A DNA stretch of 33,170 nt from a virus (taxonomy: Duplodnaviria; Heunggongvirae; Uroviricota; Caudoviricetes), in IMG/VR virus record IMGVR_UViG_3300044212_000090; one strand, 5' to 3'. How positions within the stretch are numbered: position 1 is the first letter of the stretch; each line of letters starts with the position of its first letter. Below, one piece after another: positions 13,315 to 19,877 of the stretch. The translations under genes were made by a program, and so were the position numbers. Under the pieces are notes generated by a model. That model was not told where the DNA came from. It made no database searches and was given only the letters and a program-made list of their open reading frames with translations.

Positions 13315-13363
13315 GAGAACCCCCGCCGCAGGTCCTGTGAAAGGATCGGCGGCGGGGGTTCTC
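13315..13363 (+). terminator. Hairpin after ssb
   Basis: GAGAACCCCCGCCGC...GCGGCGGGGGTTCTC. Confidence 0.75.
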
Positions 13364-13405
13364 CGTATCTAGGACGCATGTCGCTCGTGAACGAAAGGAA
13401 GCGTC

Positions 13406-13543
13406 ATGGACAGCATCGCCGATATAGCCGAGGAGCAGTGCTTCGGGCCTGTGGAGACGAAAGCGCTGGCGCTGGCGGACGCCGCGTCGGTCATGCTGGG
13501 CGAGGAGCCGCTATGGCTGATCGACCTTAGGGCCAAGGCATGA
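13406..13543 (+). CDS. Small acidic protein, 45 aa
   Basis: SD GAAAGGAAG; MDSIADIAEEQCFGPVETKALALADAASVMLGEEPLWLIDLRAKA; ATGA overlap with the next ORF; below the ORF-track size cutoff. Confidence 0.6.
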   Translation: MDSIADIAEEQCFGPVETKALALADAASVMLGEEPLWLIDLRAKA

Positions 13544-13776
13544 GGGGCGTCCGTCTCGTCGCGGCTCTCGCCGCCGTCTCATGCCTCTCCAGCTGCGGGG
13601 GGCGGGTCGCCGCGCAGCCATTCATCAAGCTCGACCCGTCATGCGTCAGGACGACAGCTGCGGCAAACGTTTACTCGTCCGACGAGGGGCTGGCACAGCT
13701 GCCAGATGTCTGCAATCCTATACTGCCGCTGGGCGATGCCGACGACAACGAGTGGGGCGGCGAGAAGACGACCTGA
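13540..13776 (+). CDS. Small lipoprotein, 78 aa
   Basis: MRGVRLVAALAAVSCLSS-C lipobox. Confidence 0.65.
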   Translation: MRGVRLVAALAAVSCLSSCGGRVAAQPFIKLDPSCVRTTAAANVYSSDEGLAQLPDVCNPILPLGDADDNEWGGEKTT

Positions 13777-13799
13777 AGCCATGCGTCTGGCAGGATGCA

Positions 13800-13828
13800 G
13801 TCGCTCCTTCGGGAGCGTGGATTGAAAC
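13800..13828 (+). CRISPR. Solitary type I-C-like CRISPR repeat (not an array)
   Basis: GTCGCTCCTTCGGGAGCGTGGATTGAAAC: 6-bp stem CGCTCC/GGAGCG with UUCG loop, followed by the 11-nt tail TGGATTGAAAC typical of I-C repeats; no second copy seen. Confidence 0.75.
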
Positions 13829-13856
13829 CCGCAAGAGCTGATCTGACGTTCAGCCC

Positions 13857-13905
13857 ATACGGCAAGGCCCTGCGAACGCTTGACGTTCGCGGGGCCTTGC
13901 CGTAT
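13857..13905. promoter_or_regulatory. 22-bp-stem inverted repeat overlapping a sigma70-like promoter
   Basis: ATACGGCAAGGCCCTGCGAACG-CTTGA-CGTTCGCGGGGCCTTGCCGTAT; TTGACG (13880-85), then 17 nt to TATAGC or 19 nt to TAGCAT. Confidence 0.55.
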
Positions 13906-13996
13906 AGCATTGCACGGGACGCATTGCCATCGCGAACAACGCCATAGGGCGAACCGCGTCCGGAAGCGGACGCAAGAACGAAAGGAAAGGGCCTTC

Positions 13997-14419
13997 ATGA
14001 CCGAAATCTGGAACACCATCGAGGACACGCCGAGCGAAATAGGAGCCAAGGAGTTCCGCCTGCGCGCCTCTCATGTCATCAAGGCGCTCGCGCAGGTCGA
14101 CCAGAGCTGGGCAGACAATGCCGCACAGCGGCTCAAGGGCTCCGAGATCGACGATGGGCGGGACTGGGTGCACCCGCTCGACCGCACCATGCTCCACGTC
14201 TACGAGCTATGGCTGCTTGAGCACGACGGCGTGAGGCAAAGCCGCCACCCCGGCGCATGGATCTCGGCGGACGGGCTGATGAATCTGGGCGGCGACACGC
14301 AGGAGTCGCTGGAGGAGGCGCAGGCCATCGCCGATCAGGAGCATCGTCTGGTGCGCCTGTGGATGCGTCATCCGGGTGCCGTGCCCGGGGCCTTCGGGCT
14401 CTTCGCGCCGAGCGAGTGA
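13997..14419 (+). CDS. Hypothetical protein, 140 aa
   Basis: SD AAGGAAAGGG; MTEIWNTIEDTP... Confidence 0.75.
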   Translation: MTEIWNTIEDTPSEIGAKEFRLRASHVIKALAQVDQSWADNAAQRLKGSEIDDGRDWVHPLDRTMLHVYELWLLEHDGVRQSRHPGAWISADGLMNLGGDTQESLEEAQAIADQEHRLVRLWMRHPGAVPGAFGLFAPSE

Positions 14420-18245: not shown

Positions 18246-18426
18246 CGCCCGACTCCTTTTCAGCTTGTCTGCAATGCCTATATGCGTCGGCGCAGAAGCA
18301 GGGAGGGAATCGACGGATGCAGGAGTGCGCTCGAACGGGAGGAGTGCGTCGAATTCGGGCATATGCGCCGTATGCGCCGGCTAGCACCCGTATGCGTTTT
18401 CCGGCGTTTTTTCAACGAAAATGGGC

Positions 18427-18597
18427 GAAACTGCATACAGAACATACGGGTGCATACGGGCCATATGCACCCCTCATCCCTACTGCCAGTAGGGCTTTAG
18501 CCCCCCTGCATATGAGCATATGGTTTATAGAGGCTTTGGCATGTTTAAGGGCTGTTTCGGGGGTTCCATAGGAAAAGCCGTATGCATATGCAGTTTC
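18427..18597. repeat. 171-bp unit, copy A, bounded by an 11-bp terminal inverted repeat
   Basis: GAAACTGCATA...TATGCAGTTTC; one mismatch to copy B; relatively AT-rich and dense in GCATA/CATATG. Confidence 0.95.
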
Positions 18598-18638
18598 ATG
18601 CTTTTCGGAGGCAATCGTCGCAGGAGAGAAGATCGCGC

Positions 18639-18656: not shown

Positions 18657-19478
18657 ATGCTCAAGCCTTTCGTCGTCACGTTCGCCGTCCCCGCCCGCAA
18701 CTGGCTGACGACCACCGGCGACGAGAACAGCTCCCGGCGAGCGAAGGTGAGGCACGATCTGCGCGCCTACGGCAAGCGGGTGTGGTCCGATGCCCTCAGA
18801 GCCGGCTGCCCGCGCGTGGACCGCTTCATGCTATGGGTGACCATCGGCGGGCGCCGGGAGTCGCCGGTGCTCTCCGCCGAGACGCTGAAGCCCCTCATCG
18901 ACGCCGCGACCGACATGCACGTATGGCCCGACGATGACCCCTACCATCGCGTCTGCACCTGCTACATGCCAGACCCGCGCCGGGCTCCGCAAGGCAACGC
19001 GATCGTGTCCATGTGGGTCATTCCGCTCGACAAATTCGAGAATCCGGCCATGGAACTCATCGCCTCCGTGCCCGGCGCCCGAGGAACGGGCTTCACGCTG
19101 GAGGTGCCCGACCGCGACTGGCTCACGTCGAACATGAAGCTGTCCGCCCCCGAGCGAAAAGCGAAGCAGGGCCGCATCATGCGCTCGGCGGCGATGCTCT
19201 GGAATGAGGACGCGCCGCTCGGCGCCGATGCGGCGGTGCTCTTCGGCGTGCGCTACCCCGATTCGCGCAAAAAGTATCAAGGGGATCCCGACAACACCGC
19301 GGAGACGGCCACGGCCATATGGGGCGCGGGCGCGGCGAAGCTGCTGTGCCCGGCCTCGCCCTCGCTCTTCGGCTTCTATCTGCTGGGCAGGCATCCGAGC
19401 AGACCGAAACACCACGAGATGGCAATGACGGCATTCACCGTGCCGAAGGATTACAGCTGGCTCGACCGGCTGAAGTGA
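18657..19478 (+). CDS. Tandem two-domain RusA-like (Holliday junction resolvase-fold) protein
   Basis: Internal duplication (FAVPARNWLTT / LEVPDRDWLTSN); domain 1 has AETLKPLIDAATDMHVWPDDD, domain 2 has GDPDNTAET. Confidence 0.6.
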   Translation: MLKPFVVTFAVPARNWLTTTGDENSSRRAKVRHDLRAYGKRVWSDALRAGCPRVDRFMLWVTIGGRRESPVLSAETLKPLIDAATDMHVWPDDDPYHRVCTCYMPDPRRAPQGNAIVSMWVIPLDKFENPAMELIASVPGARGTGFTLEVPDRDWLTSNMKLSAPERKAKQGRIMRSAAMLWNEDAPLGADAAVLFGVRYPDSRKKYQGDPDNTAETATAIWGAGAAKLLCPASPSLFGFYLLGRHPSRPKHHEMAMTAFTVPKDYSWLDRLK

Positions 19479-19668
19479 GAGAGAAACGACGCCTGGGCGA
19501 CCCTGATCGCATTCTGGGCGGTCAGCGCTCATGCATGGCATACGGCCCGTGAAAGCGCATCGAACAGGGGGGGGCTGGTACTTTATTGCCCCGAATATGG
19601 GCACATGGGCCGTATGCAGTGACTAGTATCCATATGCGTTTTTCGCGGATTTCTGGCGGAAAACGGCA

Positions 19669-19839
19669 GAAACTGCATACAGAACATACGGGTGCATACG
19701 GGCCATATGCACCCCTCATCCCTACTGCCAGTAGGGCTTTAGCCCCCCTGCATATGAGCATATGGTTTATAGAGGCTTTGGCATGTTTAAGGGCTATTTC
19801 GGGGGTTCCATAGGAAAAGCCGTATGCATATGCAGTTTC
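19669..19839. repeat. 171-bp unit, copy B
   Basis: Direct repeat of 18427-18597; the left flanks stay similar but diverged for about 70 bp more. Confidence 0.95.
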
Positions 19840-19877
19840 GCTGTTTTCGGAGCTGTCCCCATGCTTCGCGGCCAGGC

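Follow-up and report, generated by a model that had tools for sequence, protein, structure and literature searches.

The 33,170-nucleotide stretch of DNA analysed here (the window) carries one shortened type I-C CRISPR repeat of 29 nt (positions 13800-13828, plus strand), followed by a 28-nt pseudo-spacer (13829-13856) and a 22-bp hairpin (13857-13905), the same layout and coordinates as in an earlier note on this DNA. With a probability that we place a little short of even, this unit may act as a Racr-type RNA decoy like RacrIC1, tying up the I-C proteins of the host. Its sequence, its layout, its insertion relative to related elements, its likeness to host repeats and no detectable target were observed, and from these we infer a host, transcription, cleavage, Cascade binding and inhibition. 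The earlier note had proposed either a decoy or a mini-guide; the decoy was retained as the better option, and the mini-guide lost ground since the target search found none.

Folded alone, the repeat has a leader of 2 nt, a 6-bp stem capped by a UUCG loop and a 3' tail of 11 nt. The standard I-C repeat has a 7-bp stem, a 5-nt loop and overhangs of 2 and 11 nt (PMC8524198), and the two geometries are therefore alike except for one base pair fewer and a shorter loop. All but one of the bases (28/29) align to a 32-nt bifidobacterial I-C array repeat with a 3-nt deletion that keeps the hairpin and the 11-nt tail; the repeat equals the array repeat of two bifidobacterial I-C loci (L163 and L167) minus 3 nt and with the last base changed, in agreement with the previous description of a UUCG-looped repeat about 3 nt shorter than typical. 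A putative Cas5c/Cas5d cut at the stem's base, its position taken from PMC8524198, would leave an 11-nt 5' handle (13818-13828, plus strand) in which the UGG recognition trinucleotide is intact. Shortening is no defect by itself, because trimmed stems serve in arrays, the recognition parts are intact, and what Cas5c reads is the stem base, the 3' overhang and the UGG that follows the cut rather than the loop (PMC8524198). The arrays of two genomes regularly use repeats with 6-bp tetraloop stems (L028, 19 copies; L034, 9 copies), and in long I-C arrays of Flexilinea (L032) and of a Verrucomicrobia genome (L040) the stems of most repeats are variously trimmed, with intact handles. Folding predicts that the handle of the window unit pairs with the first spacer bases, leaving the UGG with an unpaired score of 0.03-0.26, and 22% of genuine array units are equally occluded, with scores under 0.15.

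The repeat is the sole I-C-like repeat in the window, and no other full or partial repeat was found within 100 bp of it. Searches by tblastn with Cas proteins, for which the positive control worked, detected no cas genes in the window, in L002 or in 7 kb of further element DNA (about 40 kb in total), so that the absence of an array and of cas genes from the window, as first noted, was borne out. Rfam gave no match, and viral and metagenome collections contained no exact copy of the repeat. The sequence features of a solitary repeat unit (SRU), namely a repeat match, isolation and an intergenic position on a mobile element, were all found in the window. The intergenic position claimed earlier applies to the window and to only some of the copies; in most haplotypes the upstream ORF extends into the repeat or passes through it. 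The initial classification as a solitary, crRNA-like I-C repeat, carried by a mobile element in a bifidobacteria-like host, is supported when the unit is set beside the arrays and CreR units of hosts and the solitary repeats of viruses.

The window lies within a 209,659-bp metagenome contig, an element with ssb, primase-polymerase and sliding clamp genes, of which 12 near-identical copies were recovered from other samples; plasmid and viral collections contained no close relatives. The unit is preceded by a conserved neighbour, ssb (Enc34-type, PF10991; 12519-13298, plus strand), and followed by a 140-aa core gene of the element family (13997-14419, plus strand) that has its own GACGCAT word at 13918 and lies directly after ssb in relatives. 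Homologs of the 140-aa protein at 30-39% identity occur in Bombiscardovia coagulans, Bifidobacterium bifidum and B. pseudocatenulatum, in total in 5 of 236 Bifidobacteriaceae genomes and nearly always right behind ssb. Because these homologs and DNA matches of 65-76% both fall in the Bifidobacteriaceae, we infer a bifidobacterial host. Type I-C occurs in bifidobacteria, as the earlier note had stated, and is the most frequent subtype in Bifidobacterium strains (1,212 of 3,050 with CRISPR; PMC12838274). Among the spacers of Bifidobacteriaceae genomes, none evidently matched the element. The model of the 140-aa protein is confident (pLDDT 94) and has no solved-structure match (best Z 5.3, to a designed protein), which has no bearing on its role, either way. 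A Cas5 gene near the Bombiscardovia relative was considered as an explanation of the repeat and rejected, as it adjoins a Cas6e-like gene and has no I-C array; this cas5 and cas6e-like pair (L179:5098-6488, G186:C10) lies inside the relative, with no array in the 11.7 kb read. Elsewhere in the window, two 266-nt copies with 89% identity (18345-18610 and 19587-19852) flank an ORF at 18657-19478.

The distance between ssb and the 140-aa gene is 16-107 nt in relatives (L089, L100-L106) and 698 nt in the window, where the two genes are separated by a cassette of about 600 bp composed of a GACGCAT word, a 45-aa ORF, a 78-aa ORF, the repeat, the 28 nt and the hairpin. This cassette is absent from seven related elements, and no such repeat was found near the ssb/140-aa gene block in the related elements examined. 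Its upstream border is a hairpin after ssb (13315-13363, plus strand), and the promoter-like GACGCAT before the 45-aa ORF (13373-13379, plus strand) belongs to an element-specific word that occurs 22 times against 3.8 expected, often just before gene starts; its putative promoter role makes it the likely driver of the cassette. Scans for sigma-70 promoters and U-tailed terminators between 12200 and 15400 detected nothing; a TTGACG...TAGCAT pair with a spacing of 19 nt overlies the hairpin. Two antisense copies of GACGCAT (minus strand, 13781-13787 and 13641-13647) also lie inside the cassette, the first being broken in L002 and L004. The two ORFs are also bracketed by a near-duplicated stretch of 16 nt (13371-13386 and 13792-13806), which was discarded, as 15 of 138 control windows score equally.

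The first ORF of the cassette (13406-13543, plus strand) encodes a 45-aa acidic orphan protein of net charge -6, for which no match in Pfam, PHROG, NCBIfam, PADLOC or PDB and no homolog outside this element was found; it is a possible, unsupported, Acr candidate. The second (13540-13776, plus strand) encodes a 78-aa lipoprotein-like product with an unstable 3' end: its length varies among near-identical copies (52, 78, 94 or 130 aa), most of which have it frameshifted or cut short, and its longer forms run into or through the repeat. Like the first, it matched no protein family. An adjacent acr gene is typical of Racrs without being required; here neither these small ORFs nor their neighbours showed resemblance to known Acr sequences or folds. 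The repeat begins 23 nt past the last stop codon of the cassette ORFs. The hairpin that closes the unit (plus strand) has 22-bp arms with one G-U pair, a 5-nt loop and no U tail, and it is one of five hairpins of 22-24 bp in the element, the other four of which (8808, 11806, 13315 and 23831) start 5-16 nt past stop codons and likewise have no U tails. It is probably an ordinary terminator, generic to the element, or a stabilising 3' end of the cassette transcript, rather than a 3' cap dedicated to a crRNA. Since relatives have no such extra DNA, a promoter word stands ahead and a hairpin behind, the repeat most likely closes a small inserted operon.

Shortened I-C repeats were also detected in viral contigs, using a pattern that fixed only the ends of a 29-nt repeat and returned 45 loci with 31 distinct sequences. 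In 22 of the 31, the three stem positions that the pattern left free are all paired (shuffle mean 2.0, maximum 7); 29 stand alone, with no further repeat inside 100 nt, 15 are followed by a U-tailed terminator (control 6%) and five are preceded by a promoter (control 1.3%). This enrichment in paired stems, terminators and promoters suggests that trimmed solitary I-C repeats are a recurring and apparently selected form. Many of the viral repeats (L047-L087) have the appearance of stand-alone promoter-repeat-terminator genes, and eight loci (L049, L052, L059, L062, L072, L078, L079 and L085) constitute a two-repeat mini-array family. Scattered copies of an I-C repeat tail were observed in an Isosphaeraceae genome (G004; L033, L035), with 22 copies and none in an array, and in a Burkholderiaceae genome (G005; L036), with about a dozen besides its arrays.

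Two Bifidobacteriaceae genomes without a Cas5d match carry shortened solitary I-C repeats of 30 nt (region L283:1472-1501; G063:C1:1684907-1684935, minus strand) and 28 nt (L284; G081:C33:31598-31624, minus strand), each with 9-14 nt behind it and then a hairpin and a small, highly acidic ORF (114 aa, net -13, and 92 aa, net -15, respectively). No target above 9 nt in a cas promoter was found for either unit, and their layout would make them good candidates for a Racr or Cracr combined with an Acr.

The closest functional precedent is RacrIC1, a 34-nt unit that follows acrIC5 at a distance of 11 nt in a prophage of B. pseudocatenulatum and was shown to inhibit type I-C (PMC10651486). Like the window unit, it is a lone I-C repeat with an intact handle on a bifidobacterial mobile element devoid of cas genes, and lies just 3' of small ORFs with which it probably shares a transcript, at 11 nt compared with 23 nt in the window (Camara-Wilpert et al. 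2023, PMC10651486). RacrIC1 differs in its 34-nt length, its prophage location, the adjacent acrIC5 homolog and its proven inhibitory activity, whereas the window unit is 29 nt long, sits on an element of about 210 kb beside orphan genes and is known from sequence.

A second comparison is with the CreR units of the host. Among 40 bifidobacterial Cas5 loci, about 30 of them with I-C arrays, 16 hold a solitary pseudo-repeat of 25-36 nt together with a TTC-flanked self-match of 12-18 nt; these CreR-like self-targets lie before cas3 or cas5, and a hairpin usually stands behind the unit (L155-L194, L108, L109, L290 and L291; at least 16). The repeats of the 16 host units measured span 25-35 nt, seven of them being no longer than 29 nt, and these solitary cas-locus units fit the CreR description of Liu et al. 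The window unit resembles CreR in its often shortened pseudo-repeat, pseudo-spacer and terminal hairpin (bioRxiv 10.1101/2023.03.10.532045; Shmakov et al., PMC10120712). CreR lies inside a cas locus and matches a PAM-flanked site in a cas promoter, however, and the window unit has no cas locus near it and no such match in the loci searched; as about 40 kb of element DNA contain no cas gene, it is no CreR. Virus-borne mini-arrays directed against rival viruses have, as cited in PMC10120712 from Medvedeva et al. 2019, a pair of repeats and a spacer of full length for which a protospacer exists. By that account they share with the window unit a cas-less repeat that uses host proteins, and differ from its one repeat and 28 nt with no protospacer.

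Mobile copies of CreR that silence cas genes, termed Cracrs, have been reported for type I-C and on plasmids, and need at least nine PAM-proximal matches, either to the promoter of cas or creT or to the spacer of a host CreR or CreA (bioRxiv 10.1101/2024.10.29.618823); repeat units without a 9-nt match to a CreR/CreA spacer are classed as likely Racrs by Liu et al. Because host CreR units share the repeat, pseudo-spacer and hairpin layout, a Cracr became the main alternative to a decoy. Like a Cracr, the window unit sits on a mobile element and joins a pseudo-repeat to a pseudo-spacer and a terminator, but its best run in 78 bifidobacterial Cas5 loci is 7. The seed search next to a TTC PAM that had been proposed earlier was carried out for the pseudo-spacer (plus strand; able to form a 5-bp hairpin) in bifidobacterial cas loci, the element and public collections, and returned no target. 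Matches were defined as TTC-flanked runs ignoring positions 6, 12 and 18, with the host CreR loci as a working positive control, and the search covered one genome per species and about one fifth of the element. No run longer than 7 nt was found in the 78 bifidobacterial Cas5 loci and none of at least 9 nt in 1.58 Mb of loci, and the best run was 6 in the window and under 6 in adjoining element DNA. The PAM plus a 10-nt seed gave 179 matches in 236 Bifidobacteriaceae genomes, none of the 150 listed being near cas5 when inspected by eye, and the PAM plus a 16-nt seed gave 86 matches in metagenomes, none of the 80 examined being near cas genes; viral contigs, phages and plasmids contained no protospacer for the 28 nt. 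A perfect 16-nt PAM-flanked match (L202/L240), at the start of a small gene on a contig of 49% GC with no cas gene, was treated as chance. Guiding to the element's own hairpins or promoter words was likewise set aside, with no TTC-flanked run above 6.

Although these searches argue against a guide, the unit might still have a real target, either as a Cracr repressing a cas or toxin promoter of an unsampled host strain, as a CreA-like guide for a promoter somewhere in the ~165 kb of element DNA not seen here, or as a guide against a rival element. We consider this unlikely, at about one chance in four, even though the unit copies the layout of a host CreR found in 16 of 40 Cas5 loci, its hairpin begins 28 nt past the repeat and thus inside the host CreR range, Cracrs against I-C and on plasmids have precedents, and the search had the scope given above. 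In addition to the short TTC-flanked runs and the seed and protospacer searches without a cas-linked target, the first 10 nt of the pseudo-spacer contain no T, compared with three to seven in host CreR spacers. The unit could equally be an inert remnant, that is, a piece of a host CreR or an array end captured with the cassette, shortened by slippage and hitch-hiking without function, which we hold to be just as improbable. Slippage variants 3 nt shorter do arise within arrays (L029, L030 and L044), arrays also end in a last repeat and a hairpin (L031 and L039), the adjoining 78-aa ORF is decayed in most copies, and conservation of the unit is not significant: the 57 nt from 13800 to 13856 are invariant in the 12 near-identical copies, which is likely by chance, since there are only 33 variable sites in 1,293 nt (P=0.23), and the repeat and pseudo-spacer are therefore not significantly more conserved than their flanks. 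The pseudo-spacer can also be loosely aligned with a further I-C repeat; 164 of 2,000 shuffles align as well (P about 0.08), and its reading as a decayed second repeat was rejected. Random decay, however, would often break the stem register, the leader or the handle, which are all perfect here, no other repeat fragment lies nearby, and viral repeats of the same shortened form show a strong enrichment in intact stems and terminators.

That the unit resembles a CRISPR repeat by chance, or is an RNA hairpin serving some purpose outside CRISPR, is very improbable. GC hairpins abound in the element, and stabilising stems commonly carry UUCG loops, yet a base-composition model gives a chance expectation of about 6e-6 such repeats per window, 28 of the 29 bases align to a bifidobacterial array repeat as described above, and the strict repeat pattern had no match in 6 Mb of order-3 Markov sequence.

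Under the decoy reading, the element would transcribe a small accessory operon from the promoter word at 13373 through the 45-aa ORF, the 78-aa ORF, the repeat and the 28 nt, ending at the hairpin. In a host with a type I-C system, Cas5c would cut after repeat base 18, at the base of the 6-bp stem, releasing an RNA of about 88 nt composed of the 11-nt handle, the 28 nt and the hairpin. This RNA may load Cas5c, Cas7 and Cas8c yet point nowhere, competing with real crRNAs and thereby lowering I-C interference against the element. The unit would be a new example of a known trick, the RNA decoy, and holds no new principle. A broader proposal, that it is a working anti-CRISPR RNA on the own promoter system of a large conjugative element, co-expressed with a new 45-aa Acr, and is one of a widespread class of I-C crRNA mimics with trimmed stems (28-30 nt), probably under-counted by identity-filtered searches, is doubtful, with perhaps one chance in seven of holding in full. 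If true, it would provide a Racr and an Acr tested as a pair on a conjugative element of bifidobacteria, of which none has been shown in the literature searched; Racrs have been validated mainly from phages, and plasmid-borne solitary repeats are few (n = 90), with no link to acr genes (PMC10651486). A working case would also supply I-C editing tools with a short RNA switch.

The wider result, maybe more useful than the locus itself, is that trimmed I-C repeats recur in many viruses and as regulators in bifidobacterial hosts. Since their stems and terminators are intact, a search for RNA anti-CRISPRs should tolerate trimmed stems. For the bifidobacteria, a working case would show how large elements evade the commonest CRISPR subtype of the genus.
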